A DNA stretch of 64,000 bases from an uncultured Planctomycetales bacterium (GTDB lineage: Bacteria > Omnitrophota > Gorgyraeia > Zapsychrales > Fredricksoniimonadaceae): NCBI GenBank assembly GCA_964572155.1, contig CAZNDZ010000001.1:1274786-1338785 (forward strand), given 5' to 3'. Positions within the stretch are counted from its first letter, which is position 1, and the number at the start of each line of letters is the position of its first letter. The position numbers and the translations under genes are program-made. The notes below the pieces were generated by a model. It searched no databases and was not told the DNA's origin. It saw only the letters and a program-made list of their open reading frames with translations. This document shows positions 4,557 to 53,478 of this stretch, in pieces.

Positions 4557-4651
4557 TGATTGATATACTACATTTATCTCATGTTCCCTGCAATAAGATT
4601 TTAAATTTTCTAAGATAGGAATCAACAATAACCATATCTTTTTCTATTGAA

Positions 4652-5315: not shown

Positions 5316-8300
5316 ATGTTCAAGTCTTTAACTCATATTGGGCTAGCCCTAGCCCTAATTTTACCCCCATGGCCATTAACACATGCGCCAATCATCAAAC
5401 CATCATCAAATCTCTCATCAGCGACGATACCTGTGCTTGATGGTCAGCGTATAACACCCACAAGACCATTAATCTTTTCAGACACACTTAACGGTTTGAA
5501 TGTCACAACGACGATCACGCAAACTCAACAGCAATTAATTCAAGAAGTGCAGATGACTGGTTCAAAAGAGTCCGTACATTTCCGATTGATTCTCATTCCT
5601 AATGAATCAGAAGAATCATTCCTGCGTAGCCAAACACCTAAGTATTTGGCGAAGCAGGATGAATTTATCTTTTCACAAAAAATTCAAGATAATAAGATTT
5701 TAACCAAAGAATTAATTAATACTAAAACTCCAAATACAAAAAGCGGTAGTATTTATACTTGGCGATTGCTGACGGATGATCCTTTGGTAATGATGGATTT
5801 ACAAAGCACATCGGATGGCGGAGCGGATATTATTCGGGTGTTTGACGAACAACGTATTATCGTAGCGCATATTAAGCCTTTTATCTATTGGACAAAAACC
5901 CATCACCAAAAGGTAGCGGCAATCCAATTATCTAAAGATGCTTTGCAGAATTCTGTCATAGAATTATTAATCCATGAAGATCCAAGTGCTTATCCGTTAA
6001 CAATTGACCCTTCAATTGCATATGGCCAATGGTTGGGGGATGGAACTACAATAACAACTCGTGTTTTGGCTATAGCACTTGAACCTGTAACAGGAGAAAT
6101 ATATGCTGGCGGTTCAGCATCAGGGGTGATGGCAAATATTGGCACCATGGTAGGCACATTTAATGGTGAGACAAATGGCTTTGTTGTTGAAATAATAGGG
6201 GGTAATCCGCCGGCTATCAATTGGTATCATGATCTTGATGGTGCAGGGAATGATACAGTTCTAGCATTGGCTGTAAATGGTGATGAAATTTATGCGGGGG
6301 GGTATGCTAATTCATCAGATTCATGGGATAGCGCAGGATCAAATGTGGGTACAATGACTAATTCTGGTAATCCTGGAGAAGGGTTTATTGTTGAAATTGC
6401 GGATGGCGCGTCACCTACATTAAGCTGGCATATGTGGTTAGGGGGTGTTGGAGGTGATGCTGTTCGTGCTTTATCTATTAATGGCGATGAAATCTACGCA
6501 GCAGGAAGCAGTAATTCATCAGATTCATGGGATACCGCAGGTTTAGAGTTAGGCACATTGACCAATACATCTAACGAAGGCTTTGTTGTAGAAATTGCGG
6601 ATGGCGCGCCGCCTACGATCAATTGGCGTATGTGGGTGGGAGGGGAGGGCAGTGATATAATTTATGCGTTAACTATCAATGGTGATGAAATTTACGCAGG
6701 TGGATCTTCTACTTCAACAGGTTCTTGGGAAACATTAGGATCAACAGTTGGGACATTAACCAATACATCTGCCGAAGGCTTTGTTGTAGAAATTGCTGAT
6801 GGTGCGCCGCCTTCTATCAATTGGTGTATGTGGGTTGGTGGCGTTGGAATTGATATGGTTTATAGTTTAGCGGTTAATGGTGATGAAATTTATGCAGGAG
6901 GATATACTGATTCTTCTGCATCATGGGATACGGCAGGGTCGACGTTTGGAACTGTGACAAACACATTGACTAATGGTGAAGGCTTTGTGGTCGAAATAGC
7001 CGATGGTGGCCCGCCAACCTTGAATTGGCGCATGTTTATTGGTGGCAGGTCAGCTGAGATTATTAATGCTTTGAGTGTTAATGGTGATGAGATTTATGCC
7101 GGGGGGTATAGTAATAATTCAGCCAGTTGGGATACTGTTGGATCAACAGTTGGAACTCATACAAATAGCGCAACATCAGAAGGCTTTGTTGTAGAAATTA
7201 CGGATGGTAGTCCGCCTTCTTTAGCTTGGCGTGCGTGGATTGGTAATAATTTCACTAATAGTGCTGTTAATGGGTTAGCTATTAATGGCGATGTAATTTA
7301 CGCAGGCGGGTATACACAAGTTGGGACATTCAATTTGATGGAGACATTTACGGTTATTTCTGGTGCCGACACTCAGGGTCCTGGATGGATTGCACAATTA
7401 GATGATGCTGGTCCTCCAACTTATTACTGGTTACAGGCTTTTGGTGGAATTGGATCTTCTGCTGTGCGAGGAGTAGCGGTTAATGGGGATGAGATTTATG
7501 CAGGAGGGGAGGCATATTTGCAGAGTCCGGGTACTTTTTTTGAAGTTGGGACTGCGAACAGTCAGTTTTATGAAGCCTATGTTGTAGAAATTGCGGATGG
7601 CAGCACACCGTCCATAGTTTGGCGTATGTGGCTAGGGGGATCTGGGTATGATTTTCTTCGTACTTTAATAGTTAATGGCGATGAAATTTATGCGGGGGGG
7701 TATGCTAATTCATCAGATTCATGGGATACCGCAGGATCAAATGTGGGTACAATGACTAATTCTGGTAATCCTGGAGAAGGGTTTATTGTTGAAATTGCTG
7801 ATGGATCTCCACCTTCTTTGACATGGCGTATGTGGTTAGGTGGCGTTGGAAGTGATGTGGTTTATAGTTTAGCGGTTAATGGTGATGAAATTTATGCCGG
7901 GGGGTATACTGATTCATCAGATTCTTGGGAAACTGCAGGATCAACAGTGGGGACATTGACAAATACATTGGCTACTGGTGAAGGATTTGTGGTAGAAATT
8001 GCTGATGGATCTCCACCTTCTTTGACATGGCGTATGTGGTTAGGTGGTGTTGGAAGTGATGCGGTTTATGGTTTAGCGGTTAATGGTGATGAAATTTACG
8101 CAGGTGGATTTTCTAATTCATCAGATTCTTGGGATACTGTAGGATCAACAGTTGGGACATTGACCAATACATCTAACGAAGGCTTTGTTGTAGAAATTGC
8201 TGATGGTGCGCCGCCTTCTATCAATTGGCTTATGTGGGTTGGTGGTCTTGCACAAGACCAGGTTCGTGTTTTAAGTATTAATGGTGATGAAATCTATGCG

Positions 8301-8849
8301 GGTGGCACAACAACTTCATTATCCAGTTGGGATACCGCAGGATCAACAGTTGGAACATATGGAAGTACAGGTCAAGAAGGCTATATATTAGAAATCGCCG
8401 ATGGAGGACCACCAAATCTTGATTGGCTTATGTGGATTGGGGGTGATGGCGCTGATTATGTATTTACTTTAGCTGTTAATGGTGATGAAATCTATGGGGG
8501 TGGTGAGTTCAATTCATCCGATTCATGGGATACCGCAGGGTCTGAGTTGGGGACATTTACAAATTCAGGGACTTTCAGTGCATATATTGTAGAAATTGCG
8601 GATGGCGCGCCACCTTCGTTGACATGGCGTATGTGGATAAGTAGTGCTGGGTCTGACGCTGTATTAAATTTAACTGTTAATGGTGATGAAGTTTACGCAG
8701 GGGGGGTGATATCTTCATCTTCGCAGGGCCTTGAAGGGGTTTATCAAGGCACAAGATACGATTCTTCATCTGCTGCGTTTATTGTTGAGATTGCGGATGA
8801 TGCGACGGCGGCTAGTGTCAATGCATTGTTTTTTGGGACTGGGTTTTAA
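5316..8849 (+). CDS. secreted SBBP-like beta-propeller repeat protein (~16 tandem ~65-aa repeats)
   Basis: Signal peptide; repeated unit W-MWLGG-GSD-VY-LAVNGDEIYAGGYS-SSDSWDT-GSTVGTLTN-EGFVVEIADG-PPSL resembles the SBBP (PF06739) beta-propeller repeat; ~195-nt DNA periodicity with several near-identical copies. Confidence 0.75.
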   Translation: MFKSLTHIGLALALILPPWPLTHAPIIKPSSNLSSATIPVLDGQRITPTRPLIFSDTLNGLNVTTTITQTQQQLIQEVQMTGSKESVHFRLILIPNESEESFLRSQTPKYLAKQDEFIFSQKIQDNKILTKELINTKTPNTKSGSIYTWRLLTDDPLVMMDLQSTSDGGADIIRVFDEQRIIVAHIKPFIYWTKTHHQKVAAIQLSKDALQNSVIELLIHEDPSAYPLTIDPSIAYGQWLGDGTTITTRVLAIALEPVTGEIYAGGSASGVMANIGTMVGTFNGETNGFVVEIIGGNPPAINWYHDLDGAGNDTVLALAVNGDEIYAGGYANSSDSWDSAGSNVGTMTNSGNPGEGFIVEIADGASPTLSWHMWLGGVGGDAVRALSINGDEIYAAGSSNSSDSWDTAGLELGTLTNTSNEGFVVEIADGAPPTINWRMWVGGEGSDIIYALTINGDEIYAGGSSTSTGSWETLGSTVGTLTNTSAEGFVVEIADGAPPSINWCMWVGGVGIDMVYSLAVNGDEIYAGGYTDSSASWDTAGSTFGTVTNTLTNGEGFVVEIADGGPPTLNWRMFIGGRSAEIINALSVNGDEIYAGGYSNNSASWDTVGSTVGTHTNSATSEGFVVEITDGSPPSLAWRAWIGNNFTNSAVNGLAINGDVIYAGGYTQVGTFNLMETFTVISGADTQGPGWIAQLDDAGPPTYYWLQAFGGIGSSAVRGVAVNGDEIYAGGEAYLQSPGTFFEVGTANSQFYEAYVVEIADGSTPSIVWRMWLGGSGYDFLRTLIVNGDEIYAGGYANSSDSWDTAGSNVGTMTNSGNPGEGFIVEIADGSPPSLTWRMWLGGVGSDVVYSLAVNGDEIYAGGYTDSSDSWETAGSTVGTLTNTLATGEGFVVEIADGSPPSLTWRMWLGGVGSDAVYGLAVNGDEIYAGGFSNSSDSWDTVGSTVGTLTNTSNEGFVVEIADGAPPSINWLMWVGGLAQDQVRVLSINGDEIYAGGTTTSLSSWDTAGSTVGTYGSTGQEGYILEIADGGPPNLDWLMWIGGDGADYVFTLAVNGDEIYGGGEFNSSDSWDTAGSELGTFTNSGTFSAYIVEIADGAPPSLTWRMWISSAGSDAVLNLTVNGDEVYAGGVISSSSQGLEGVYQGTRYDSSSAAFIVEIADDATAASVNALFFGTGF

Positions 8850-10094: not shown

Positions 10095-10787
10095 ATGTCA
10101 AAATTATTTCTTATTCCAAATGCAGTTGAAGAAACTCGAAAAATACCTTGTGGTTTTGATCCGAAGATTATTTCTCATTTGCGTGTGTTTTTTGTTGAAG
10201 AGCCAAAGGCGGCGCGAGCTTTATTGAAATCAATCTTGCCTGACTTTCCTTTATCCGAATGCCAATATCATGATTTAAATGAGCATACGACAGCTGTAGC
10301 TGTTAGAGAATATGGAAAAATTATTAAGTCTCACGATGTGGGGATTATTAGTGAATCTGGGTGTCCGTGTGTGGCTGACCCAGGGGCTGATTTAGTTTTA
10401 TTGGCTCATCAATTGAATGTTGAGGTTGTGCCTTTGGTTGGTCCGTCGTCGATCTTGCTGGCATTAATGTCCAGTGGGCTTAATGGGCAGAATTTTGCGT
10501 TTAATGGGTATTTGCCTAAAGATGAAAAAGATCGGGTGTCGAAAATTAAATTGTTGGAGCAGCGCGCGGTGAAGGAAGGACAAACGCAGATTTTTATGGA
10601 TACGCCGTATCGCAATACCAGCATGATGGAGCAATTGTTAAAGACTTTGGATGCCAAAACATTATTATGTGTGGCCTTAGATATTCAAGGAGCAGATCAG
10701 ATGATAAAGACGCAGCCTGTCAGCGAATGGCGAAAAGTGAATCTTCAATTGCCCAAGAAACCAGCTTTGTTTATAATAAATAAATGA
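10095..10787 (+). CDS. tetrapyrrole-methylase-fold SAM-dependent methyltransferase (RsmI/YraL-like)
   Basis: Conserved blocks (…SESGCPCVADPGADLV…VPLVGPSSILLALMSSGL…) align with the RsmI fold. Confidence 0.6.
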   Translation: MSKLFLIPNAVEETRKIPCGFDPKIISHLRVFFVEEPKAARALLKSILPDFPLSECQYHDLNEHTTAVAVREYGKIIKSHDVGIISESGCPCVADPGADLVLLAHQLNVEVVPLVGPSSILLALMSSGLNGQNFAFNGYLPKDEKDRVSKIKLLEQRAVKEGQTQIFMDTPYRNTSMMEQLLKTLDAKTLLCVALDIQGADQMIKTQPVSEWRKVNLQLPKKPALFIINK

Positions 10788-23351: not shown

Positions 23352-25205
23352 ATGAGCATGTTTGATAAAAACATAAGCCAAGAAAAACTTAAAAGCCTTG
23401 AATTTGCAGAAGCAGCACGTGAAATGGAATGGAAGTCTCCCAGTTTTGCCCAACAAATTTTCCAAGGTACGCCCAATTTTGATTTAATTTATCCATTTCC
23501 TGCTCAAAGTGCTGAAGAAAAAAAAGCTGGTGATGAGTACCTGTTAAAAATAGAAAAATTCCTTAAAGAAAATTTAAATCCTGATGAAGTAGATCGCACC
23601 GGTCAAATCCCTGACAAAGTTATGAAGGGTTTGGGAGAAATGGGGGCATTTGCACTCAAAATCCCAAAAGAATATGGCGGTGTTGGATTCACGCAATACA
23701 ATTATAATCGCGTCATGCATTTGGTAAGTTCCTATTGTGCATCGACGGCTGTTTTATTATCTGCCCACCAAAGCATTGGTGTTCCACAGCCATTAAAACT
23801 ATTTGGTACTCCCGAGCAAAAGAAAAAATATTTACCCATGTTTGCCAAAGGTGCAGTGTCAGCTTTTGCGTTAACGGAACCAACCGTAGGTTCTGATCCA
23901 CGCAATATGAAAACAACGGCAACTTTAAGTGAAGATGGTAAGAGCTATATTTTAAACGGCGAGAAATTATGGTGCACCAATGGTCTTGTTGCAGATGTTT
24001 TAGTTGTCATGGCGGTGACCCCACCTAAGATCATTAAGGGTAAAGAAATCAAACAGATCACAGCATTTATCGTCGAAGCAAATTCACCAGGCATTGAAAA
24101 AGTTCATCGTTGTCATTTCATGGGTTTGCATGGCATTCAAAATGGTTTGATCAATTTTAAAAATGTTGTCGTTCCAAAAGAAAATATTATTTTAGGTGAA
24201 GGTGAAGGTTTAAAGCTTGCATTAATGACCTTAAATACAGGTCGTTTAACATTACCTGCCGCATCCGCGGGTGTGTGTAAATGGTGTTTGAATGTAGCAC
24301 GTATTTGGTCAACCAAACGGCAACAATGGGGTGGGCCAATCGGCGAACACGAAGCCATTGCCTTAAAGTTAAATTATATTGCTAGCCATACTTTTGCGAT
24401 TGATGCCGTAACATGGTTATGTTCATCATTAGCGGATGATCATAAAAGAGATATTCGCTTAGAAGCAGCCATGGCGAAATATTTTACGACAGAAGTTTCT
24501 TGGAAGATTTGTGATGAGACATTGCAAATTCGAGGGGGAAGTGGTTATGAATCTGCCTCGTCATTGGCTGGTCGTGGCGTTGATTATTGGCCAGTTGAGC
24601 GTGTACTGCGCGATATTCGTATCAATCGCATCATTGAAGGTACTAGTGAAATCATGCATTTGTTCATTGCCCGTGAAGCATTGGATTTGCATTTATCGCT
24701 CATGAAGCCTTTGATCAGCGGCAAAACGCCACCAGATAAAATGATTATGGCGGCATTTAAAATGTTAGGATTTTATGCCACATGGTATCCAAAATTATGG
24801 TTACCATCCTTCTCCGGCGGAAGTGTTAGCAAATTACCTGCACCGCTTGATGGGCATATGAATTATGTTTTAGATGCCAGCAAACGTTTGGCCCGTTACA
24901 CATTCCATCAAATGGCACAATATCAACAAAAACTTGAAAGCAAACAAAGTATTTTAAGTCGTGTTGTAAACATTGGGACGGAATTATTTGCCATGTCTTG
25001 CACATGCACCTACGCCGACATGCAAATTAAAAATGGCAATAAGAATGCCGTTGAATTGGCAGATAATTTCTGTATGGATGCTCGCAAGCGCATTGAAGCA
25101 TTCTTTTTAGAAACACAGGGCAACGAAGATTTAAAACAACTTAAGACAGCCAAGAAAATCTTAGCCCAAGAATTTGAATGGCTAGAAAATGAAATCATAA
25201 AATGA
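23352..25205 (+). CDS. long-chain acyl-CoA dehydrogenase family protein
   Basis: ACAD N-terminal, middle and C-terminal domains plus a ~180-aa C-terminal extension. Confidence 0.85.
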   Translation: MSMFDKNISQEKLKSLEFAEAAREMEWKSPSFAQQIFQGTPNFDLIYPFPAQSAEEKKAGDEYLLKIEKFLKENLNPDEVDRTGQIPDKVMKGLGEMGAFALKIPKEYGGVGFTQYNYNRVMHLVSSYCASTAVLLSAHQSIGVPQPLKLFGTPEQKKKYLPMFAKGAVSAFALTEPTVGSDPRNMKTTATLSEDGKSYILNGEKLWCTNGLVADVLVVMAVTPPKIIKGKEIKQITAFIVEANSPGIEKVHRCHFMGLHGIQNGLINFKNVVVPKENIILGEGEGLKLALMTLNTGRLTLPAASAGVCKWCLNVARIWSTKRQQWGGPIGEHEAIALKLNYIASHTFAIDAVTWLCSSLADDHKRDIRLEAAMAKYFTTEVSWKICDETLQIRGGSGYESASSLAGRGVDYWPVERVLRDIRINRIIEGTSEIMHLFIAREALDLHLSLMKPLISGKTPPDKMIMAAFKMLGFYATWYPKLWLPSFSGGSVSKLPAPLDGHMNYVLDASKRLARYTFHQMAQYQQKLESKQSILSRVVNIGTELFAMSCTCTYADMQIKNGNKNAVELADNFCMDARKRIEAFFLETQGNEDLKQLKTAKKILAQEFEWLENEIIK

Positions 25206-27340
25206 CAGCTTTGCCGTCATACTTAAATAAGTTAACCATCCTCAAGCAAATCCCGATTTTTTCGGGATTAAATTGGTTTGAACTTAACCGCATTGCCCGT
25301 AGCAGTGATCTTGTTGAATTTAGCAAAGGGGACACGATTTGCAAACAAGGCTCACCGGCAGATGCGTTCTATGCGCTTATCTCTGGGCGTATTCAATCCT
25401 ATACATTAAATATGATGAGCCAAAAGGAAGAGATGGACCTGATCATGCGCGGCATGCATTTTGGTATCATTTCAACCTTAACTGGCGAGAATCATTCACA
25501 TACCTACGAAGCCATCAATGATTCAGTTGTTATCCGTATCACAAAAGAAAATTTTGATAAGTTGCTTAAATCAACGCCTAAGATGGCGATTGCCTTAAGT
25601 CAAAATTTATCACAGCGCATTCGCAAGCATGTTACCCGTACGCGTGATACTCAAGAGAGTACGATCATTGCTGTGTATGCGCCACTTAAAGGATCGGGTA
25701 GTTCAACATATGCAGCTAATTTAGCGATTCATTTAAAAGAACAAAGTGAACGCAAGGTGCTTTTGTTAAGTCTATCGTCGGATCAAAACGATCAACGCAT
25801 TGATTTAGCCACCATTGTCTATGATCATCATAAGATTCTTGCAAGTATCATCAAAGGCCCATTGCCCATTGATATTCTAAGTGTCAAATTTGATAAGACC
25901 AATGCGGCCGTCTTAAATAAAATCAGCCAGTTTATTAGCGCACCCGTTAATGATTACAATTACATCGTCCTCGATCTACCCAATGAAATGGATGATGTGG
26001 TTATGAAAATTTTAACTCAATCAGATATCATTCACTTAGTGACGGTTGATCGTGCCAAAGATTTAGAAATGACCCGCCAAGTTTTAGATCGTCTTATTCT
26101 GACATTGAAAGATAGATTCCATCCGGAAAACATTCAAGTCTTAATTAGCGGCATGCATCCTGAAAAGAATTTATCCAGCGAAGAAATTAAGCACGTGCTT
26201 AGTTACGATATTTTCATGTCCTTGCCTCACTTAGATGTTAATCAGTTTAAATCCATTGAGATTAATGCAGGCATGACCATTGTTGAGGTTTCTAAGGACA
26301 CGGATTATTCTCGCGTTATCCGTCATTTATCCCGACGTATCAGTGGTGTGATGGTTGGTATTGTTTTAGGTGGAGGTGCTGCGCTTGGCATGGCACACAT
26401 CGGTGTTATCCGTGTCTTAGAACGTGAAGGCATACCGATTGATGTCATTGTTGGCAGTAGCATGGGCGGGCTTGTGGGGGCTGTGTGGGCCATTGGCAAT
26501 AAAGCTGATGAGTTAGAGAAATGTGGTCGAGAGTTTGAAAATAAAGCAGGCTTGGTTAAGATTTTTGATCCACCGTGGTTAAACGTATTTATATTATTGG
26601 TGGGAGTTTTTCTTTTGTTTATATTCAAATTTCATTTCTGGGCTGTATTCACCATTATTTTTGGAATGCCTTTGGTTGTATTTACAGTTCCTGGTTTGGT
26701 TGAAGGTCGAGGCATTGCCCGATGGTTACGCAGTAAGCTTGGGAATAAAACATTTCATGATGTGAAAATCCCATTTAAGTTGGTTGCGTATGATTTGTTG
26801 CGTCGTAAAGAATTAATCCTAGATAAAGGCGGGTTGGTTGAAGCTGTTAGTAAAACCATCGCGATCCCAGGTGTCATTTTTCCAATCCTAGAAAATGATC
26901 AAATGATCATTGATGGTGGCGTTCTTAATCCATTACCGACGAATGTCTTGGTTGATATGGGCGTTAAGAAAATCATTGCGGTCAATGTGTTGCAGTCGCC
27001 GCAAGATGCAGAGTATACCGCTGAATTAGAAAAAGAACGTCACAATAAGTTGCTTCAAATACCATTTAATAAGTATCCAATGCAATATATTGGCATTCGT
27101 CTTGGCAATCTTTTAAGCAAACATCTTACACCAAACGTTGCTGATATCATCGTTAGAACATTACAAGCTTCCGAATACGTTTTAGCAGAGGCTAGCGGTA
27201 AACAAGCTGATGTTTTGATTCACCCTGATCTTCGCGGGATTAATTGGTTTGAGTTGTATGAGGTTAATCAGTTGATTGCACGAGGAGAAGAGGCCACTGT
27301 AAAAGCCCTTCCTGCCATTAAAGAATTAGTCAAAAGATAG
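25202..27340 (+). CDS. cyclic-nucleotide-binding domain + degenerate ParA/MinD-like P-loop domain + patatin-like phospholipase (NTE-like), with a two-helix TM insert in the patatin domain
   Basis: cNMP-binding fold at the N-terminus; IIAVYAPLKGSGSSTYAANLAI resembles a MinD/ParA Walker A lacking the Lys/Thr; patatin motifs GGGAALG, GSSMG, DGG all present. Confidence 0.75.
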   Translation: MTALPSYLNKLTILKQIPIFSGLNWFELNRIARSSDLVEFSKGDTICKQGSPADAFYALISGRIQSYTLNMMSQKEEMDLIMRGMHFGIISTLTGENHSHTYEAINDSVVIRITKENFDKLLKSTPKMAIALSQNLSQRIRKHVTRTRDTQESTIIAVYAPLKGSGSSTYAANLAIHLKEQSERKVLLLSLSSDQNDQRIDLATIVYDHHKILASIIKGPLPIDILSVKFDKTNAAVLNKISQFISAPVNDYNYIVLDLPNEMDDVVMKILTQSDIIHLVTVDRAKDLEMTRQVLDRLILTLKDRFHPENIQVLISGMHPEKNLSSEEIKHVLSYDIFMSLPHLDVNQFKSIEINAGMTIVEVSKDTDYSRVIRHLSRRISGVMVGIVLGGGAALGMAHIGVIRVLEREGIPIDVIVGSSMGGLVGAVWAIGNKADELEKCGREFENKAGLVKIFDPPWLNVFILLVGVFLLFIFKFHFWAVFTIIFGMPLVVFTVPGLVEGRGIARWLRSKLGNKTFHDVKIPFKLVAYDLLRRKELILDKGGLVEAVSKTIAIPGVIFPILENDQMIIDGGVLNPLPTNVLVDMGVKKIIAVNVLQSPQDAEYTAELEKERHNKLLQIPFNKYPMQYIGIRLGNLLSKHLTPNVADIIVRTLQASEYVLAEASGKQADVLIHPDLRGINWFELYEVNQLIARGEEATVKALPAIKELVKR

Positions 27341-27353
27341 GTCGTTTGATATA

Positions 27354-29384
27354 ATGACCCCTATGGCAAATCCCATAAAAGTAGGTTCACGCAAAAGTCC
27401 TTTAGCTTTAGCTCAAATCAAAGAAGTTTTTGATGTGCTTAAGGCTACTTCTTCTTTTGAAGTCACAACGTTTGATACCGCCGGTGATATTGATAAAACT
27501 ACGTCGCTGACCACTAACCCAGCAGATGATTTTTTTACCGACGAGCTTGACCGTGCTTTACTTAATAAAACCATTGATGTTGCCATTCATAGTGCCAAAG
27601 ACTTACCTAAAGTTATTCCTCAAGGGCTTGCGATATTTGCGCTCACAGCTGTCTTAGATGACACCGATGCATGGGTTGGTCGTTGTCCGTGGGCTAATTT
27701 GCCCAAAGGGGCGCGTGTTGGCACCAGTAGTCAGTTAAGACAGCAGCAAACCAAGGAATTACATCCCACCGCACAGATCGTTGATGTGCGCGGCACCATC
27801 CAAGAACGCATAGATTTGGTAAAACAAGGTAAGATCGACGGCATTATTGTTGCAACCTGTGCGTTGAAACGTTTAAAGCTGACAGACATGATCACAGATG
27901 TTTTGCCTTGGGAAGGCATGCCATTGCAAGGTCAGTTGGCGATTGTTGGACGTGCTGATGACATGATCCTTAAACGTTTATTTGCGCCACTCGATGTTCG
28001 TCTCACATACGGCAAAGTATTGTTGGTTGGTGCGGGCCCAGGAGATCCAAATTTAATCACGTTAAAAGCCATTGAAGCATTGCGCAAAGCAGATTGTGTG
28101 ATGTACGACTATTTGGTGAATAAAGATTTATTGCAGTATGCGCCACATGCAACACATATCTTTACAGGAAAGCGCAAAAAAGATCATAGTTTAACCCAAG
28201 CCCAATTATCGACCATGTTAAAAACCAAGGCGATGCAAGGGATCAATGTGGTGCGCCTCAAAGGCGGGGATCCACTCATTTTTGGTCGTGGGGCAGATGA
28301 AATCAATTATTTGCGTAGTTATCACATTGATGTGGAGATTATCCCAGGGGTTAGTTCAGCAACGGGTATACCATCGCTGTTGGGCGTACCTTTAACGGCT
28401 CGTGGGATTGCAACGTCGGTAGCCTTTATCAGCGCTCATAGCGAAGATGAAGATGTTAAAGGCCCGCAACCGATTGTGATTCCTAAATGTGACACCGTTG
28501 TTTTCTTGATGGGATTAAGTAAAATTTATGAAATCATTGCCACATTAAAAAAAGACGGATGGTCGCTTACTACACCCCTGATGATTGTAGCCAATGGCAC
28601 CCGCGATAATGAGCAAATTGTTACAGGAACATTGGGAACCATTGAAAATATTGTTAAAGAATCGATGATCTCGCCTCCGGCGCTGATCATTGTCGGTAAC
28701 ACCGTTAACTTTTACGGCCAGCAGCGCAAGAAAACATATTTACATACGGGAACACATCCGATGTTGTATCAAACTTTAGGTAAGATTATTTCTTGGCCGA
28801 TGATTGAGATGCAGCCGGTTCAATTATCAGAAGGTGATCGTGAGCGGTTTGGTAAAGAATTTGACGCGTCGAGTATGGTGATTTTAACATCCCCAAGTGC
28901 TGTTAATCATTTTGTACCGATCATTTCCTCCATACGCAGTCAGCATCACTTAAAAGAGAAAATATTTGCTGTCATTGGTCAGCACTCTGCACAAGTCTTT
29001 GCAAGTTATGGCGGGCATGCACATATCATTGCTGATGAAGAAACAGCTCAAGGTTTATTCAAGACCTTAAGTGCCGTCATGGATTTTAAAGGTAAGAATA
29101 TTTTCTTCCCAAGATCATCCATTCCTAATCCATTTTTAATCGATGCCTTGCGTGAACATGGGGCGACGGTGTATGAATGGGCTGTTTATAACAATATAAA
29201 ACCAAAACGTGGGCCTTTGCCTACAGAACATGTCGATGGCGTCATCTTTACAAGCCCTTCAACCGTTTTTAATTTCTTAGAAGAATATGAAACAATTCCC
29301 AGCCATTGGGATATTTTAGCCAAAGGCCCCGTCACACACAAAGCTTTACGAGAAGCGGGGTACCGTAGTAAGATAATGATATGA
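27354..29384 (+). CDS. fusion protein: HemC-like domains 1-2 + uroporphyrinogen-III C-methyltransferase (CobA/SUMT) + uroporphyrinogen-III synthase (HemD)
   Basis: N-terminal ~215 aa collinear with porphobilinogen deaminase domains 1-2 (GSRKSPLALAQ…HSAKD…VGTSSQLRQ…); then GKVLLVGAGPGDP SUMT domain; C-terminal HemD-like ~230 aa. Confidence 0.75.
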   Translation: MTPMANPIKVGSRKSPLALAQIKEVFDVLKATSSFEVTTFDTAGDIDKTTSLTTNPADDFFTDELDRALLNKTIDVAIHSAKDLPKVIPQGLAIFALTAVLDDTDAWVGRCPWANLPKGARVGTSSQLRQQQTKELHPTAQIVDVRGTIQERIDLVKQGKIDGIIVATCALKRLKLTDMITDVLPWEGMPLQGQLAIVGRADDMILKRLFAPLDVRLTYGKVLLVGAGPGDPNLITLKAIEALRKADCVMYDYLVNKDLLQYAPHATHIFTGKRKKDHSLTQAQLSTMLKTKAMQGINVVRLKGGDPLIFGRGADEINYLRSYHIDVEIIPGVSSATGIPSLLGVPLTARGIATSVAFISAHSEDEDVKGPQPIVIPKCDTVVFLMGLSKIYEIIATLKKDGWSLTTPLMIVANGTRDNEQIVTGTLGTIENIVKESMISPPALIIVGNTVNFYGQQRKKTYLHTGTHPMLYQTLGKIISWPMIEMQPVQLSEGDRERFGKEFDASSMVILTSPSAVNHFVPIISSIRSQHHLKEKIFAVIGQHSAQVFASYGGHAHIIADEETAQGLFKTLSAVMDFKGKNIFFPRSSIPNPFLIDALREHGATVYEWAVYNNIKPKRGPLPTEHVDGVIFTSPSTVFNFLEEYETIPSHWDILAKGPVTHKALREAGYRSKIMI

Positions 29385-41666: not shown

Positions 41667-42554
41667 ATGGAAAAAATATTTCAGTATGATGTAACCTTAA
41701 GTTTTGCAGGCGAAGATCGTAAATATGTAGAGCAAGTTGCTCAAAAACTCAAGGCGCAAGAAATTAAAGTTCATTATGATGAATTTAATGAAATTGATGC
41801 TTGGGGGAAAAATTTACCAGAAAATTTTGACCGTATCTATCGAAAAGACTCTCGTTTCTGTGTCATGTTTATTTCCGGAGACTACGCTAAGAAAGCTTGG
41901 CCCACCTTTGAAAAAAGAAGCGCTTTAGACCGAGAAGTTATCGAAAATGGTTATATTCTTCCAGCTCGTTTTGACGATACAGAAGTTTTAGGAATTCCGC
42001 CTTCCAAGTCTTATATTGATCTTCGTAAATATAGCCCTAATGAATTCGCTGAACTGATTATTAAAAAAATAAGTAAGACTCAATCAATAAAAAATGTGTT
42101 TGAAACAACAGCTTTTCGCCGTCCCAAGATCACCAAATCATTCGATCCTTATAAAGAATCACAAGTTTGGGTAGAATATCTGATTAAAGAGTTAGAGAGT
42201 CGTTGTGAAGATTCAGGAATATCTTTTAGTCATTTTCTTCGCGATGGTAAACAATGTTTAAGATTTGTAATTAACGGCAAACCTGTTTATTCCATTAATA
42301 TTAAATCAGGCTCTCTTTATTTGGACCAAGGATTAAGTTTTAGTTATGCGCATGGAGAAATGTCAGCAATTCTAGATGGCATTAATGCATTTGGTGAATT
42401 TGATTGGAATAAAGACAGGGAATGTATAGTTTTAAAACTTAATGATTTTAGTGTTTTTTCTCGGTCATCTAGCGAACGGCAAGAATTTACGAAACTAGAA
42501 TTTCTTGATTACATTTGGGAAAAAGTTTGTAACGCCACAGAAGAAAAAATGTAA
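41667..42554 (+). CDS. TIR-domain protein with unknown ~150-aa C-terminal domain
   Basis: YDVTLSFAGEDRKYVEQVAQKL…IKVHYDEFNEIDAWGKNL…SRFCVMFISGDYAKKAWPTFE closely follows the DVFLSFRGEDTR … S-x-NYA-S-WCL-EL TIR pattern. Confidence 0.75.
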   Translation: MEKIFQYDVTLSFAGEDRKYVEQVAQKLKAQEIKVHYDEFNEIDAWGKNLPENFDRIYRKDSRFCVMFISGDYAKKAWPTFEKRSALDREVIENGYILPARFDDTEVLGIPPSKSYIDLRKYSPNEFAELIIKKISKTQSIKNVFETTAFRRPKITKSFDPYKESQVWVEYLIKELESRCEDSGISFSHFLRDGKQCLRFVINGKPVYSINIKSGSLYLDQGLSFSYAHGEMSAILDGINAFGEFDWNKDRECIVLKLNDFSVFSRSSSERQEFTKLEFLDYIWEKVCNATEEKM

Positions 42555-42613
42555 GGAAAGACTCCCCATATTAATGAGCAGCTCTTACATAACTAATAAG
42601 AAAATCTATTTAA

Positions 42614-43372
42614 ATGTACCCTAAGCATTTTTTTGAACAATTTTGGGAATCTGAACAACGAAATGAATTATTTGTTTGTATGCCATTTCATAGTTCTTTA
42701 AATTATCGTTTTAACCAAGTAATTAAAGTCGCTGCTAAAAAGGCAGGTTTCGATAACGCCATAAGAGTTGACGAGGATACCTCAGGAAATGTAATAATCA
42801 CAAAAATTTTAGATGGAATTGCAAATTCAAAAATGGTTTTAGTTGATTTATCAGACGATCCAAGTTGCAAAGAACGACATGTAAATGGAAATGTTTTATA
42901 TGAAGCAGGTATCGTTCATGCTATTAGAGAACCTGATGCATTAATAATTGTACGAGATCAAGGTCCTGAAGGTGTCGATTTTGATATTCGAGGATTTACA
43001 ATTAATACGCCGCCTAATAATGTTATTGAAGAAAAATGGTTGATTGAATTATTGAAGAATAGTCTAGAAAATTATCAATGGTTTATTGGAAAGCGAATAA
43101 AGTCTACGGCAGAATTAATTGATGATATTAGTTTGCTTCTTATGGCTAAATATGGAGGTGATAAGAATACTTCAACACATTTTAATAGTGCTAATATGGA
43201 TGCAAAGTATAAGATATCTATTATGAGGCTTTTAGAATTAGGAATTTTAAGATTTCAAACTGCAAGAAATAATAACCCTTTAGAGCATGCTTATCATTGG
43301 ACTGATTTTGGTTATGAAGTAATGAAATATCTTCACATAGAAAGGCAAAATCCTGGTATTCGCTTATCATGA
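42614..43372 (+). CDS. nucleoside 2-deoxyribosyltransferase-like / SLOG-class Rossmannoid domain protein with unknown C-terminal domain
   Basis: LFVCMPF… then …MVLVDLSDDPS…NGNVLYEAGIVHAIREPDALIIV mirrors the NDT (PF05014) signature ADLSG…NPNVMYELGYAHALGKPV. Confidence 0.55.
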   Translation: MYPKHFFEQFWESEQRNELFVCMPFHSSLNYRFNQVIKVAAKKAGFDNAIRVDEDTSGNVIITKILDGIANSKMVLVDLSDDPSCKERHVNGNVLYEAGIVHAIREPDALIIVRDQGPEGVDFDIRGFTINTPPNNVIEEKWLIELLKNSLENYQWFIGKRIKSTAELIDDISLLLMAKYGGDKNTSTHFNSANMDAKYKISIMRLLELGILRFQTARNNNPLEHAYHWTDFGYEVMKYLHIERQNPGIRLS

Positions 43373-44049
43373 CAACATTAGAAATAATTGATAATGTTAA
43401 AGAGCGTGGGTGGACATTTCGCCAAAGATTTAAAGGGAAAAGTAATAAAATCCTACTTATTTTTTCAAAAAGAAGTGCCGAAGATTATGGAGAAAGGAAT
43501 TGTGTGAATTTTTATGCTCTTAAAATCGATCACGCAAATAGCTATTCTGATATTTATTTTAAATATGCAATTACAGCGAGTGCTTTAGCTACACAAAAAA
43601 TAGCAGATATAGTAGGTGATCCTGAAGCTTATATTATTAATTCCGGCTTGTTTCGTTTTAAAAAATTATTAAAAGATAGCGATGAAGTTCGTAAGTTCCC
43701 TGATTTATTGCTGAGTAGCGATTCTTCTGAATCGGAATATGCTATAGATTTACTTCAAGGATTAGATATAGAAATAAATAGAGTACGTTTTGAAGTCCTT
43801 GATTTTTTAAGACGTAATAAATATTTGGGTAGAGAATCATTAAATCTTATAGAGATTGCAGATGTGATTTGTTCAGACCAAACTATAGTTGATACCGTTT
43901 ATCGTGACTTTGAAGAAAATGGCCTTATTAAAGGAGCTTACGGAAATAAAGGTGTAAAAATTACTGTAGAAGGTGAAAAATATTTAGAAAAAATTAAAAA
44001 TGAGCAAATGGGTATAAACTTTGGTTCAGAAGGAACCCATAAATGGTAG
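43369..44049 (+). CDS. hypothetical protein, last gene of cassette (start overlaps previous stop)
   Basis: No recognisable domain; C-terminal region could be wHTH-like. Confidence 0.45.
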   Translation: MTTLEIIDNVKERGWTFRQRFKGKSNKILLIFSKRSAEDYGERNCVNFYALKIDHANSYSDIYFKYAITASALATQKIADIVGDPEAYIINSGLFRFKKLLKDSDEVRKFPDLLLSSDSSESEYAIDLLQGLDIEINRVRFEVLDFLRRNKYLGRESLNLIEIADVICSDQTIVDTVYRDFEENGLIKGAYGNKGVKITVEGEKYLEKIKNEQMGINFGSEGTHKW

Positions 44050-44129
44050 AGTAAGTCGCAATATTAACTTCCTATAATATATGTTATGTTAAGTAGTTAT
44101 ATAGGAAAGTGCTAAAATAGGCAAAAAAT

Positions 44130-44156
44130 AACCCCTTGGTTTCCCAAGGGGTTTTT
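44130..44156. terminator. strong bidirectional rho-independent terminator (10-bp GC-rich stem aaccccttgg/ccaaggggtt, loop tttc, T-tracts both sides)
   Basis: Read directly between convergent genes. Confidence 0.8.
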
Positions 44157-44172
44157 AGTTGAATCTTTTTAC

Positions 44173-44577
44173 TTACTTGCTCTTTCTATCTAAGCCACAT
44201 CCATCATATTTGCTTGTATATAACCCTACGCATGCGATCAGGATAAAGATGTAGATGTCTGCGGATGATTGTCTTGCTACTGTTAGACCGAAACCTAATG
44301 TGATTAGTACTACTGCGGTGAAGATCCATGCTTCTTTGAGTTTCATGCCAACAAGTAGCCATATTGGTATGATGGCTTCTGCGACTGGTAAAACATAGAC
44401 ATATGGCCTTAATAGCCATGCTGGTAATGGCGTGTCTTTAAACATGCCGCCAACCATGCCTACATAGTGGTCAAAATCCATGAATTTGCCTAAAGCAGCA
44501 ACTGCAAATAACGCGGCTATGGCAACGCGTAAAATAATTGAAATCCAACCTAATTCGCTATTTTCTTTTTTATTCAT
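44173..44577 (-). CDS. DoxX-family membrane protein
   Basis: 4-TM small protein with DoxX-like layout. Confidence 0.55.
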   Translation of the reverse strand: MNKKENSELGWISIILRVAIAALFAVAALGKFMDFDHYVGMVGGMFKDTPLPAWLLRPYVYVLPVAEAIIPIWLLVGMKLKEAWIFTAVVLITLGFGLTVARQSSADIYIFILIACVGLYTSKYDGCGLDRKSK

Positions 44578-47881: not shown

Positions 47882-48691
47882 CTATTCCTTTTCAATAATG
47901 CCTTTAAACTTGGATGTACCAATTTTTTCTTGATTCTTTACGGCAACTAATTGCGCACAAATTGAGACGGCAATTTCTTCTGGTGTTTCACTGCCAATAT
48001 CAATGCCCATAGGAATTGATACACGTTTTAATAATTTATCGTTAATACCAGCATCTTTTAAACGTTTAAAAAACTTCACACGCTTCGGCTGACTTGAAAT
48101 AACACCGATATAACCTGCATCAGATTTAATGACAGCTTTTAAACATTCAAAATCTTGCTCATTGCCTTGCGTGACTATTGTTATAAAGGTATTGGCATTA
48201 ATAGCTAACTTAGCTAATTCTTTAGCATGTTGGCCTAAAATAACTTTATCTACGTGGGGAAATCTCTTTTTCGTCGCAAATGCTTTACGATCATCTATCA
48301 CTGTGACATGAAACTTTAAGACTTTTGCAAGCCATGAAAGAGGTAAAGCGATATGTCCGGCACCACAAATGATTAATCGCGACGCACTAAAAACAGGCTC
48401 GATAAAAACTTTCATTTGCCCGCCACAAACAGACTCACCTTCTCGACCAAAATAATTATACGTGACTGTCTGGGGTTTGTGGGTCTTTAGACTTTTTAAA
48501 CATTCTGCAATGGCAGCCTTTTCATTACGACCACCACCGATGGTTCCCCACGAAGAACCATCTTCAAACACAATCATTTTTGCGCCTGCTTTACGCGGGG
48601 TGCCTTTAAGTGTGGTTTCAACCACCGTGGCAAAGGCATACGGCTTTCCAACTTGACTGCAAGCAATGGCGCGAGAAAGAATGTCTTCCAA
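47882..48691 (-). CDS. XdhC/CoxI-family molybdenum-hydroxylase accessory protein
   Basis: XdhC N-terminal and Rossmann-like C-terminal domains (…ICGAGHIA…). Confidence 0.8.
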   Translation of the reverse strand: MEDILSRAIACSQVGKPYAFATVVETTLKGTPRKAGAKMIVFEDGSSWGTIGGGRNEKAAIAECLKSLKTHKPQTVTYNYFGREGESVCGGQMKVFIEPVFSASRLIICGAGHIALPLSWLAKVLKFHVTVIDDRKAFATKKRFPHVDKVILGQHAKELAKLAINANTFITIVTQGNEQDFECLKAVIKSDAGYIGVISSQPKRVKFFKRLKDAGINDKLLKRVSIPMGIDIGSETPEEIAVSICAQLVAVKNQEKIGTSKFKGIIEKE

Positions 48692-50678: not shown

Positions 50679-53009
50679 TTATTTCATTTCTTTATTTTTT
50701 AGTGCCTTGATAATTTTTTCAGGTGTGATGGGTAAGTCCCAAATGCGCACACCAATGGCATCTTCGACCGCATTGGCTATGGCTGCTGAGGTTGGTAATA
50801 ACGATGCCTCACCCATCCCCTTTGCCCCAAATGGTCCTTCCGGATCATTGGTTTCAATTAAAATGGAATTCATTTTTGGAATACCAATCGAACGCGGCAC
50901 ACGGTAACCTGCAAAATTAGGATTAAGGACGCGCCCATTTTTAAATCTTAAATCTTCGTAGAAAGTATAGCCGATGCCCATGGCTAAGGAACCTTCGATT
51001 TGCGCTTCAACCGATTGTGGGTTGATGGCTTTGCCAATATCATGCGCATCCCATAATTCTAAAAGCTTTACTTCACCGGTGTCTGTATCAACTTCGACTT
51101 CCGCAATCTGTGCTTCAAAACCATAACTCCCTGATACGTTGCCTTCACCGGTTCGAAAATCAATCGGGGTTGTCTTTGGATTATAACTGCCACGGCCAAT
51201 GATTTGTTTGCCATAGTTAAAGGAATAGCAAAGTTCAAGGGCTTTATCAAAGGTCATTAATTTCTTACCATCTTTTTTAAAGATGACTTGTTCAGCTTTG
51301 ATGTCTAAATCGTCGATTGAAATTTTATGTTCTTTGGCAACAATTTCTAAGATTTGTAATTTGGCATCACGACCACCTAAGAAGGCGGCATTTCCAGAAA
51401 TAAAGGTCACACGGCTGGCAAATGATCCTGTATCAAACGGTGTGATTTCTGTGTCCCCTGCCTTACATTTGATGCGGCTAAAACTAACACCTAAGGCATG
51501 CGCTGCAATTTGGGATAAAGCAGTGTTTGATCCTTGCCCTGTATCCGCAGCTCCGGTAAATAGGTAAACAGATCCATCTTCTTCCACTTTAACGATAGCG
51601 CCGGCACTTTCATGCGACTTATACATTTTTGAGCCCATGACATCCGCGGCAATGCCAATGCCAAGCCCACGTTTTAAATGTTTTTGTTTGCCATGCTTCT
51701 CTGACCATTTAGCGGCAGCACACGCTTGTTCAATGCAATCTTTTAGACCATTGGTGGTCAAATGCATTTTATTGATCGTGGTCATATTGGCATGAGTAAT
51801 ATTTTTCAGACGAAATTCAACAGGGTCCATGCCAATGGCATTGGCTATTAAATCCATGTGGGATTCAATGGCAAAACCACTTTGAACTCCGCCAAAACCA
51901 CGCATCGCACCACTGATGGGATTATTGGTATAGACGCGATACCCTGTCATGCGAAAATGTTGTAATTTATAAACCATGAAAATGCGCATCATGGCCGCGG
52001 CCAAAACGGTTGGGCCATAGCTACAATACGCACCACCATCTGCTAAGACTTCACCCGTCATGGCCAAAATGGTGCCATCTTTTTTAACACCGGTTTTGAC
52101 ACGATAAATCATGCCATGTTTACGACGGGTTGTAGAAAATTCTTCTTCGCGGGTTAAAACAATTTTAACAGGTAGTCCGCCTGCTTTTTTAGATAACATG
52201 CATGCAGCAAAATCCATGGGCAACATCTCAAGCTTGCCACCAAAACCACCACCCGTCGGCATTTTAATGACGCGGATATCATTTAAATCCATCTTTAAGG
52301 TCTTTGCCAATGCTTCACGGCATTTAAAAGGTGCTTGGGACGATGACCACAAGGTGATTTTATTGGTGAATGTTTCCCATTGCCCGATACAAACATGCGG
52401 CTCCATGGGTGATGGGTGTGCAACTGGGCACCAGAATTTATCTTCGCGCACATAGTCGGCTTCTTTCATGACGCGCTCAGGATTACCGAAATTAACCGGT
52501 AAAATGACGGCAATATTATTTAAGGATTCATGAATTTGGGGAGCACCTGGTTTAATCGCTTCTTCGATTTCAAAGACCCCTGGTAAAACTTCATATTTTA
52601 CGTCGATTAATTTTAAGGCCGCATCTGCTGTTTCTTCGTCAATGGCTGCAACACCTGCCACTTCATCTCCGATATAACGCACCTTTTCACTCTCAAGCGC
52701 CATTTGATCTACGGTGTGTGGAAAGAAATATTCATTAGAACCGAATTTAATTTTATAAGTGTCTTTATGGGTAACAATTGCCTTGACCCCTGGCAAACTT
52801 TCAGCTTTTGTTGTATCAATGCTGATGATTTTGGCATGCGGATGTGGTGAGCGCAGCATTTTACCAATCAACATCCCTGGGAAGCTTAAATCAAAGGCAT
52901 ACTTTAATTGACCTGTCACAACCCCGCGTCCTTCTAAGCGAGGCACGCTTTTTCCAACGGGATCCACGTATGCATCTGAAAATTTGGATTTAGCTGCTGT
53001 TAAAGCCAT
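50679..53009 (-). CDS. molybdopterin-binding large subunit of a xanthine-dehydrogenase/CO-dehydrogenase-family hydroxylase
   Basis: Ald_Xan_dh_C and MoCoBD domains; probable start MALTAAK at 53009 (track ORF begins 53108). Confidence 0.85.
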   Translation of the reverse strand: MALTAAKSKFSDAYVDPVGKSVPRLEGRGVVTGQLKYAFDLSFPGMLIGKMLRSPHPHAKIISIDTTKAESLPGVKAIVTHKDTYKIKFGSNEYFFPHTVDQMALESEKVRYIGDEVAGVAAIDEETADAALKLIDVKYEVLPGVFEIEEAIKPGAPQIHESLNNIAVILPVNFGNPERVMKEADYVREDKFWCPVAHPSPMEPHVCIGQWETFTNKITLWSSSQAPFKCREALAKTLKMDLNDIRVIKMPTGGGFGGKLEMLPMDFAACMLSKKAGGLPVKIVLTREEEFSTTRRKHGMIYRVKTGVKKDGTILAMTGEVLADGGAYCSYGPTVLAAAMMRIFMVYKLQHFRMTGYRVYTNNPISGAMRGFGGVQSGFAIESHMDLIANAIGMDPVEFRLKNITHANMTTINKMHLTTNGLKDCIEQACAAAKWSEKHGKQKHLKRGLGIGIAADVMGSKMYKSHESAGAIVKVEEDGSVYLFTGAADTGQGSNTALSQIAAHALGVSFSRIKCKAGDTEITPFDTGSFASRVTFISGNAAFLGGRDAKLQILEIVAKEHKISIDDLDIKAEQVIFKKDGKKLMTFDKALELCYSFNYGKQIIGRGSYNPKTTPIDFRTGEGNVSGSYGFEAQIAEVEVDTDTGEVKLLELWDAHDIGKAINPQSVEAQIEGSLAMGIGYTFYEDLRFKNGRVLNPNFAGYRVPRSIGIPKMNSILIETNDPEGPFGAKGMGEASLLPTSAAIANAVEDAIGVRIWDLPITPEKIIKALKNKEMK

Positions 53010-53010
53010 G

Positions 53011-53478
53011 TTATTTCCCCGCCATGATTTTGCCTGCGTGTTTGACAGCTTCAAAAATCTTTGGATACCCTGCGCAACGGCAAATATTGCCATCAAGCGC
53101 GTATTCAATTTCTTCTTGGGTCGGATTAGGATTTTTATTAAGCAAAGCTTGTGATGACATGATCATACCTGGGATGCAAAAACCACATTGGGATGAACCA
53201 TGCTCGATGAACGCTTGTTGAATTGGTGCTAAAGTATCCCCATCTGCCAAACCTTCGATCGTCGTAATGCTTTTACCTTCTAAATTTGACGCTAAGGTAA
53301 TACAGGATAAAACTGCTTTACCGTCGATGATGCAAGTGCATGTGCCACATTCGCTTTCTTGGCAGGCGGTTTTTGTTCCAGTTAAAGTGAGCTTGTCACG
53401 TAATACTTCTAATAAGGTCTCATTCCCTTTTAATTCTAGGGTGTGCGATTTCTTATTGATATTTAGAGTTATATTCAT
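53011..53478 (-). CDS. [2Fe-2S]-binding small subunit of the molybdenum hydroxylase
   Basis: Two [2Fe-2S] cysteine clusters (CQESECGTCTC … CGFCIPG). Confidence 0.9.
   Translation of the reverse strand: MNITLNINKKSHTLELKGNETLLEVLRDKLTLTGTKTACQESECGTCTCIIDGKAVLSCITLASNLEGKSITTIEGLADGDTLAPIQQAFIEHGSSQCGFCIPGMIMSSQALLNKNPNPTQEEIEYALDGNICRCAGYPKIFEAVKHAGKIMAGK

Follow-up and report, generated by a model that had tools for sequence, protein, structure and literature searches.

How could a bacterium assemble a linear tetrapyrrole with a porphobilinogen deaminase (HemC) that lacks the domain on which the cofactor of this enzyme is anchored? The question is raised by one open reading frame (ORF) in the 64-kb stretch of DNA analyzed here, hereafter the window, which encodes a 676-amino acid (aa) protein joining a short HemC module (HemC'), a uroporphyrinogen-III C-methyltransferase (CobA, or SUMT) and a uroporphyrinogen-III synthase (HemD) in a single chain. 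To our knowledge, all characterized hydroxymethylbilane synthases (HMBS, HemC; EC 2.5.1.61), which convert four molecules of porphobilinogen to hydroxymethylbilane, carry out polymerization on a self-made, covalently attached dipyrromethane primer. Every solved HMBS structure consists of three domains, the third of which bears the cofactor on a conserved cysteine, and arginine residues of domain 3 stabilize the cofactor (PMC7959689, a 2021 structural paper). Domain 3 and the cofactor Cys are missing from the fusion protein. The reading that we favor, with a probability of roughly 0.55, is that the N-terminal module would nevertheless be a functional hydroxymethylbilane-forming module, working without a Cys-linked dipyrromethane primer and handing its product to the fused HemD.

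A sequence-only reading of this locus had assigned the first ~215 residues to HemC domains 1 and 2, followed by a direct switch into CobA and by a C-terminal HemD, and the profile and structure searches bore out this order. PF01379 (Porphobil_deam) matched aa 8-204 over profile positions 1-203 of 207 (173 bits), and alignment to solved structures set residues 3-222 of E. coli HemC against aa 5-216 of the fusion, which places the domain boundary at about E. coli residue 222. PF00590 (TP_methylase) matched aa 221-430, and SUMT/CysG matches among solved structures started at ~aa 203-220. The CobA module scored above curated NCBIfam cut-offs (NF004790, 253 vs 198 bits; TIGR01469, 249 vs 185 bits), and its GAGPGD motif, the GxGxGD loop for S-adenosylmethionine (SAM), was invariant in the alignment. 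PF02602 (HEM4) matched aa 477-673 over profile positions 13-218 of 231, at 105.7 bits against a Pfam gathering score of 27.5; the NCBIfam HemD equivalog cut-offs were not reached by this C-terminal module (86 vs 275 bits). At the HemC'/CobA junction, ...DDMILKRLFAPLDVRLTY is followed immediately by GKVLLVGAGPGDP, and there are ~5 residues from the last domain-1 helix to the first CobA strand, so that no room is left for a domain 3 of ~90 aa. An AlphaFold2 model of the fusion, built on 90 homologs, was confident (mean predicted local distance difference test score, pLDDT, 93.7; predicted TM-score, pTM, 0.76). Foldseek superposed its N-terminal module on E. coli porphobilinogen deaminase (1pda) with a root-mean-square deviation (rmsd) of 2.0 Å over 227 columns, and the TM-score relative to the target was just 0.65 because the third domain of 1pda has no counterpart in the model. 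The middle module was superposed on SUMT 1s4d with an rmsd of 2.1-2.4 Å and a TM-score relative to the target of 0.80-0.84.

The absence of domain 3, and with it of the equivalent of E. coli Cys242, had also been proposed from the sequence, and it was confirmed by profile searches together with this structural comparison. Pfam did not find PF03900, the C-terminal HemC domain, in the 676-aa fusion, and TIGR00212, the NCBIfam model of full-length hemC, was covered only over profile positions 1-220 of 293. We built a domain-3 hidden Markov model (HMM) from 33 tails of canonical HemC, taken from loci in which a hemC of ~300-320 aa lies directly upstream of cobA-hemD, among the matches listed in a genome-collection scan. 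The cofactor Cys, in the motif GGCQVP, was invariant in these tails (33/33). Searches were run with all heuristic filters off and E ≤ 10. In the positive control, the model recovered 55 canonical HemC ORFs, some of them left out of its building, with E values of 9e-8 at the weakest, falling to 1e-29 or lower. When the window and seven related loci were searched as six-frame translations, noise only was obtained (best E = 2.1), and the same held for 397 related proteins (best E = 0.52). The sequence-only reading had itself named a hidden, divergent domain 3 as the weak point of its claim; the custom HMM found none. Neither Pfam nor the custom HMM, the latter run on all six frames of the window and the chlamydial loci, detected a hidden or separately encoded domain 3.

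A search with the whole fusion against 5.8 billion proteins returned 5,956 homologs at E ≤ 1e-10, the best 120 of which all had the same three Pfam domains and a length of ~650-700 aa. The named homologs among the best came from Candidatus Omnitrophota/Omnitrophica metagenome-assembled genomes (MAGs), at 53-60% identity, which suggests that the source organism is related to Omnitrophota, and the database names of the fusions were only "uroporphyrinogen-III C-methyltransferase" or "methyltransferase/synthase". The architecture, which the sequence-only reading had called unusual, is therefore unusual relative to characterized enzymes but not a one-off. The identical protein was called on 8 contigs, and the four that are listed derive from four different sequencing runs, which argues against an assembly artefact. 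Within the 120 triple fusions, mean identity to the window protein was 59% for the HemC' part (36% of columns at least 90% conserved), 63% for CobA (42%) and 49% for HemD (26%). By these figures, HemC' is conserved as much as CobA and more than HemD, and the fusion does not look like a decaying remnant.

The N-terminal module (aa 1-219) was then compared on its own, by exhaustive phmmer search, with 1.84 billion cluster representatives. The results showed 253 matches at E < 1e-30; the best 150 were essentially all domain-3-less, and Pfam detected PF03900 in 0/20 of the short-HemC matches examined. Among these best 150, the order HemC'-CobA-HemD was found in 52 representatives (plus 2 variants), HemC'-HemD in 48, stand-alone HemC' of ~215-230 aa in 21 and HemC'-CobA in 14, while 7 representatives had HemC' C-terminal to HemA and/or a SirC-like NAD_binding_7 domain. 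HemD lies within the same protein in about two thirds of the short-HemC representatives. The named members of the HemC'-HemD form are Candidatus Omnitrophota, those of the HemA-HemC' form are Elusimicrobiota, and a single four-domain HemA-HemC'-CobA-HemD fusion (860 aa) is assigned to Candidatus Margulisiibacteriota; stand-alone HemC' occurs in Chlamydiota (Estrella lausannensis, Parachlamydia sp. AcF125, Waddliaceae, Parachlamydiaceae) and in one Verrucomicrobiota MAG. In an unrooted neighbor-joining tree of domains 1-2, a single bipartition split 142 short from 56 canonical sequences, with 198/198 placed. The window module has the signature of the domain-3-less clade (D/N59, A170 and L191) and ends at the domain 1/domain 3 boundary, and on sequence grounds it belongs to this coherent clade. 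The fusion may have originated from the widespread hemC | cobA-hemD | hemB | hemL operon when hemC was joined in frame to cobA-hemD, in a lineage that had by then lost domain 3 from its HemC, an origin that we consider, jointly with the favored reading, slightly better than an even bet.

Several relatives depart from these common forms. One 841-aa protein (P0181) combines HemC' with a nitrite/sulfite-reductase 4Fe-4S (NIR_SIR) domain and TusA, a striking Rosetta-stone link between a tetrapyrrole-synthesis module and a reductase family that we take to be siroheme-dependent. A HemC'-HemD protein of 510 aa (P0128) has a stretch of ~107 aa (aa 211-319) between its two domains, which matched neither PF03900 nor the custom domain-3 HMM. 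HemC-CobA fusions were also seen in a Lentisphaerae MAG (L071) and a Kiritimatiellae MAG (L012). With ~5 residues between its HemC and CobA matches, the fusion of L012 is domain-3-less; in L071 these matches are ~160 residues apart, and the ORF is not among the listed domain-3 HMM matches. The L071 ORF may represent an intermediate or different fusion form in other phyla of the Planctomycetes-Verrucomicrobia-Chlamydiae (PVC) group.

We focused on the residues of the cleft, taking their roles from Table 2 of PMC7959689 (human HMBS) and mapping the E. coli numbering via the structure alignments of this analysis. The substrate site is kept: human R26, S28, Q34, D99, R173 and R167 correspond to R13, S15, Q21, D83, R152 and R146 of the window protein, the D99 position being that of the catalytic Asp (PMC7959689). 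Pyrrole site 1 and most of site 2 are also kept, with human K98, S96, R150, A189-NH, R195, G218-NH, S146 and S147 matching K82, S80, R129, A167, R173, G193, S125 and S126. R13, S15, Q21, S80, K82, D83, S125, S126, R129, R146, R152, A167, R173, Q192 and G193 were conserved in 139-142 of the 142 short-class sequences, and the kept substrate- and pyrrole-site residues were equally conserved in canonical enzymes.

The losses concern other positions. Along with domain 3, its Cys and its cofactor-stabilizing Arg residues are gone. A contact to the acetate of cofactor ring c1 is made by human R149 (PMC7959689, Table 2), the equivalent of E. coli R131; this position is Arg in 56/56 canonical sequences vs 64/142 short ones, in 3/52 triple-fusion representatives, and Leu128 in the window. 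The equivalent of E. coli R132 is kept as R129, and the Arg pair for ring c1 is thus incomplete. In the lid loop, the E. coli K59 position is Lys/Arg in 50/56 canonical sequences and is lost in the short class, and the Gly that follows it (51/56 canonical) is replaced by Asp in 127/142 and by Asn in 15/142 short sequences; the mean net charge of the loop shifts from +1.2 in canonical enzymes to -0.4. These comparisons indicate that features for holding a tethered dipyrromethane have gone, and those for binding and deaminating PBG (porphobilinogen) remain. No Cys column is conserved across the short clade; 15/120 chlamydial-type clusters contain no Cys anywhere in the protein, and the HemC' part is Cys-free in 4/141 representatives.

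Three cysteine candidates were considered and rejected. C169, which reached at least 90% in a first alignment, failed as a clade-wide cofactor Cys, being Cys in 70/141 and Ala in 62/141 representatives, with Val and Ile as well, and absent in 6/120 triple fusions. C248 in CobA is specific to the sub-clade of the query and is mostly Val in the wider triple-fusion representatives (by approximate motif match). A linker Cys at position 465 corresponds to Thr in the window protein.

The gene neighborhood was also informative. HemC (with domain 3), CobA-HemD, HemB and HemL follow one another in many phyla; among the matches listed, this order is complete in three loci (L008, L037 and L061) and partial in ~40 more. 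The window has the fused HemC'-CobA-HemD followed by HemB and HemL, which is the canonical hem order, and the short module therefore sits in the hemC slot. As the sequence-only reading had stated, hemB and hemL are immediately downstream and overlapping: the hemB ATG overlaps the stop codon of the fusion (ATGA), the hemL start overlaps the hemB end, and the three genes are translationally coupled. In Parachlamydia and Estrella, the short hemC overlaps a hemD of 213-215 aa in the order rnc-radA-hemC'-hemD, and the custom HMM found no domain-3 ORF near it in six frames of either locus. Among the remaining window genes that were scanned, 30 ORFs by Pfam and those of 17-40 kb through precomputed annotation, there was no second gene with PF01379 or PF03900, and no hemA, hemC, hemE or ahb gene was detected by either route. 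A second protein with the TP_methylase fold was noted in the window (10095-10787, + strand, 230 aa), with a weak PF00590 match of 29.2 bits vs a cut-off of 27.8; it may be RsmI-like or another non-tetrapyrrole member. The sequence-only reading had asked whether this protein makes hydroxymethylbilane at all, and this can be answered in part: the catalytic and substrate-binding apparatus is kept and the hemC slot of the operon is occupied, so the N-terminal module most likely performs the PBG-polymerizing step.

We weighed this reading against four others. If a canonical three-domain HemC were encoded elsewhere in the genome, the N-terminal module could be a non-polymerizing PBG- or bilane-binding module that channels to, or regulates, HemD/CobA. 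Such a gene is present in at least one Omnitrophota genome, the cofactor Cys is both invariant (33/33) and essential in canonical enzymes, and our gene scan of this genome spans the 64-kb window. We regard this alternative as unlikely, if a serious one: D83 and the substrate-site residues are kept at 139-142/142 over several phyla, beyond the needs of a binding module; the short module occupies the hemC slot of a conserved operon; HemC' is the sole HemC-like element of the operon in HemA-HemC'-CobA-HemD fusions and chlamydial hemC'-hemD pairs; and the window yielded neither a PF01379/PF03900 gene among the other genes scanned nor a domain 3 in any frame. A domain 3, or an analogue with the cofactor Cys, might instead be given in trans by a separate protein that has diverged past recognition or by the partner HemD. 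We hold this to be very improbable, since no domain-3-like ORF occurs within the window or the two chlamydial loci and neither HemD nor CobA has an invariant Cys across the fusion family, even though the short HemC is so often fused to HemD and overlaps hemD in both chlamydial loci, and the search for a companion domain 3 in this genome covered 64 kb.

A covalent dipyrromethane primer could also still be used, attached to a relocated Cys, C169 (E. coli A172). This residue is variable among the 120 triple fusions (Ile in three, Ser in two, Ala in one), the remaining members of the short clade have Ala, Val or Ile there, as is typical of a buried small hydrophobic residue, and attachment at this position leaves the Cys-free chlamydial members without explanation. 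We therefore find a relocated primer improbable, while acknowledging that C169 lies at the N-terminus of helix 168-173, beside A167, and two positions past the Ala that contacts the acetate of the pyrrole-site-1 ring through its backbone NH. It is Cys in 114/120 triple fusions and 48/52 triple-fusion representatives, against Ala in 55/56 canonical sequences, and it appears together with the loss of the Arg equivalent to E. coli R131, a coincidence that points to remodelling of the c1 site. The remaining alternative, that the ORF is an assembly artefact or a pseudogene from a recent deletion, has nothing beyond the unusual architecture in its favor; with the identical protein on 8 contigs, thousands of homologs of the same architecture, conservation in each domain and a confident fold, its probability is close to nil.

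On the favored reading, that of a primer-free hydroxymethylbilane-forming module, the fusion would take PBG, made by the co-transcribed HemB, to precorrin-2 via three fused active sites: the N-terminal module would polymerize PBG, HemD would close the linear tetrapyrrole to uroporphyrinogen III, and CobA would methylate C2 and C7. Free PBG, held non-covalently in the pyrrole sites, could serve as the chain starter, with the lid-loop Asp59 possibly holding its aminomethyl group, and, as in canonical enzymes, Asp83 and the Arg cluster would deaminate and condense one PBG after another. The resulting tetrapyrrole, in the form of hydroxymethylbilane, aminomethylbilane or its azafulvene, might then be passed directly to the coupled HemD, whose ring closure would set chain length and release in place of domain 3. 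Deaminase/cosynthetase preparations are known to convert aminomethylbilane. We infer primer-free working from the lack of a conserved thiol in the short clade, and the proposal is consistent with, though not proven by, the finding that short HemC is regularly adjacent or fused to HemD and other enzymes of the pathway. More tentatively, and at somewhat less than even odds, the whole clade (the Chlamydiota form and the Omnitrophota, Elusimicrobiota and Margulisiibacteriota fusions) may form its linear tetrapyrrole in the same way, without a tethered primer, with free PBG as starter and with the coupled HemD setting chain length and release.

Several points weigh against this proposal. Canonical HMBS cannot do without its Cys and cofactor, and substitutions of E. 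coli R131 give an apo-enzyme; we accordingly know of no precedent for a cofactor-free HMBS mechanism. The literature yielded no enzymology for any domain-3-less HemC member. Canonical hemC genes exist in Omnitrophota, since one MAG of this phylum (L075) has one. The 95% conservation of C169 in triple fusions makes a relocated attachment a minor possibility for that sub-family, and the short-class sample was picked by similarity to the query, which favors its apparent monophyly.

Two further window genes touch on the fate of the product. The gene at 505-1617 (+) encodes a fusion of an SCO1/SenC copper chaperone with DUF420, a hint of a heme-copper oxidase; the organism therefore probably needs heme, beyond siroheme or B12. 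A B12-binding-domain radical SAM protein (3009-4628, - strand, 539 aa) implies cobalamin use, which bears on the fate of the precorrin-2 from the fusion.

The features of the fusion and of the genes that follow it are collected in Table 1.

Table 1. Positions of the triple fusion, its modules, selected codons and the downstream hem genes in the window
Feature	Coordinates	Strand	Remarks
Whole ORF, HemC(D1-D2)-CobA-HemD trifunctional fusion	27354..29384	+	676 aa, ATG start, stop codon counted
aa 1-219, porphobilinogen deaminase domains 1+2 (substrate cleft)	27354..28010	+	PF01379 E=5.7e-51
aa 220-459, uroporphyrinogen-III C-methyltransferase (CobA/SUMT)	28011..28730	+	PF00590 E=5.6e-48; GAGPGD SAM motif
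aa 460-476, short CobA/HemD linker	28731..28781	+	
aa 477-676, uroporphyrinogen-III synthase (HemD)	28782..29381	+	PF02602 E=2.6e-30
D83 codon, catalytic Asp (E. coli D84 / human D99)	27600..27602	+	Conserved in 141/142 short-class sequences
D59 codon, class-specific lid-loop Asp, Gly in canonical	27528..27530	+	
L128 codon, equivalent of E. coli R131 / human R149	27735..27737	+	Arg 56/56 canonical, Leu here
C169 codon (E. coli A172), weak candidate alternative attachment site	27858..27860	+	
hemB, porphobilinogen synthase, 320 aa	29381..30343	+	PF00490 E=1.5e-141
hemL, glutamate-1-semialdehyde aminomutase-type class III aminotransferase, 431 aa	30331..31626	+	PF00202 E=5.4e-71

Elsewhere in the window, the upstream neighbor of the fusion (25202-27340, + strand) encodes a 712-aa protein with a cyclic-nucleotide-binding domain, a weak ParA/MinD-like P-loop region and a patatin phospholipase domain, an unusual signalling-lipase architecture that is kept beside the fusion on related contigs. 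Between 42500 and 44200 the GC skew flips from positive to negative, with the cumulative skew maximum at ~44 kb, and gene orientation switches exactly at this sign change, from + up to 44049 to - from 44173 (convergent). Two ORFs without a Pfam match (42614-43372 and 43369-44049) lie in a patch of ~30% GC at 42.5-44 kb. This region, 42500-44200, looks like a replication terminus. A 1177-aa protein (5316-8849, + strand) had no Pfam match at E ≤ 0.001, and the GC skew of the stretch around its gene is very high (0.33 at 6-8 kb). The genes at 50679-54323 (-) and 47882-48691 (-) encode a molybdoenzyme of the xanthine-dehydrogenase/CO-dehydrogenase family, with a large MoCoBD subunit, an FAD-binding subunit and an XdhC maturation factor.

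Parts of this picture are known already: chlamydial short proteins are automatically annotated as hydroxymethylbilane synthase, and the triple fusion is a common Omnitrophota gene. The interest of the finding is its mechanistic implication for the whole domain-3-less clade, whose loss of the cofactor-bearing domain suggests that it makes the linear tetrapyrrole by a mechanism other than the textbook one. A full-text literature search found no published account noting or explaining the missing cofactor domain of the short HmbS, and a 2026 review of heme biosynthesis contains neither "domain 3" nor "third domain" nor Chlamydia and mentions fusions only for other enzymes. A large natural clade without domain 3 or a conserved Cys, in which the cleft is kept, allows a direct test for a route that is primer-free or primed in another way, at the hydroxymethylbilane step common to heme, siroheme, chlorophyll and B12 synthesis. 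The triple fusions bear names of other activities, and the only names given to the related two-domain forms are "uroporphyrinogen-III synthase" or "glutamyl-tRNA reductase", so hemC could be scored as missing in Omnitrophota and related uncultured phyla. A mechanistically distinct HemC of Chlamydiota could, in addition, be a selective drug target.

Compared with known systems, the N-terminal module resembles canonical HemC/HmbS (E. coli 1PDA, V. cholerae 5H6O, human 3ECR) in the fold of domains 1-2 (rmsd 2.0-2.2 Å, 32-34% identity), and the catalytic Asp, the substrate-site Arg/Ser/Gln and the pyrrole-site 1 residues are identical; unlike these enzymes, the fusion has neither domain 3 nor the dipyrromethane Cys, its lid loop has lost a Lys and gained an Asp, and the c1-ring Arg is Leu. 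The chlamydial short HMBS (NCBIfam NF002202 / PRK01066) is of the same domain-3-less clade and is also coupled to hemD, but it is a stand-alone protein of ~215-240 aa that keeps the Arg equivalent to E. coli R131 and has Ala at 169. Against NF002202, a "hydroxymethylbilane synthase" equivalog of 241 positions, the window module covers positions 19-233 and scores 185.5 bits, below the cut-off of 251, and is therefore placed as a sister group and no member of the equivalog. CobA-HemD bifunctional fusions share the CobA-HemD order and the downstream hemB and hemL. Among the matches listed, those with a separate hemC occur in Clostridia, Nitrospirota, Desulfobacterota, Chloroflexota and others; there hemC is ~300-320 aa long with domain 3, whereas in the window it is fused in frame. 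The siroheme synthase CysG (S. enterica 1PJQ) has a homologous SUMT module, among the best Foldseek and NCBIfam matches, that is likewise joined to other pathway activities. In CysG, however, the partner is the precorrin-2 dehydrogenase/ferrochelatase that acts downstream of SUMT, while in the fusion the partners are the two upstream steps, an HmbS-like module and a uroporphyrinogen-III synthase (UroS).

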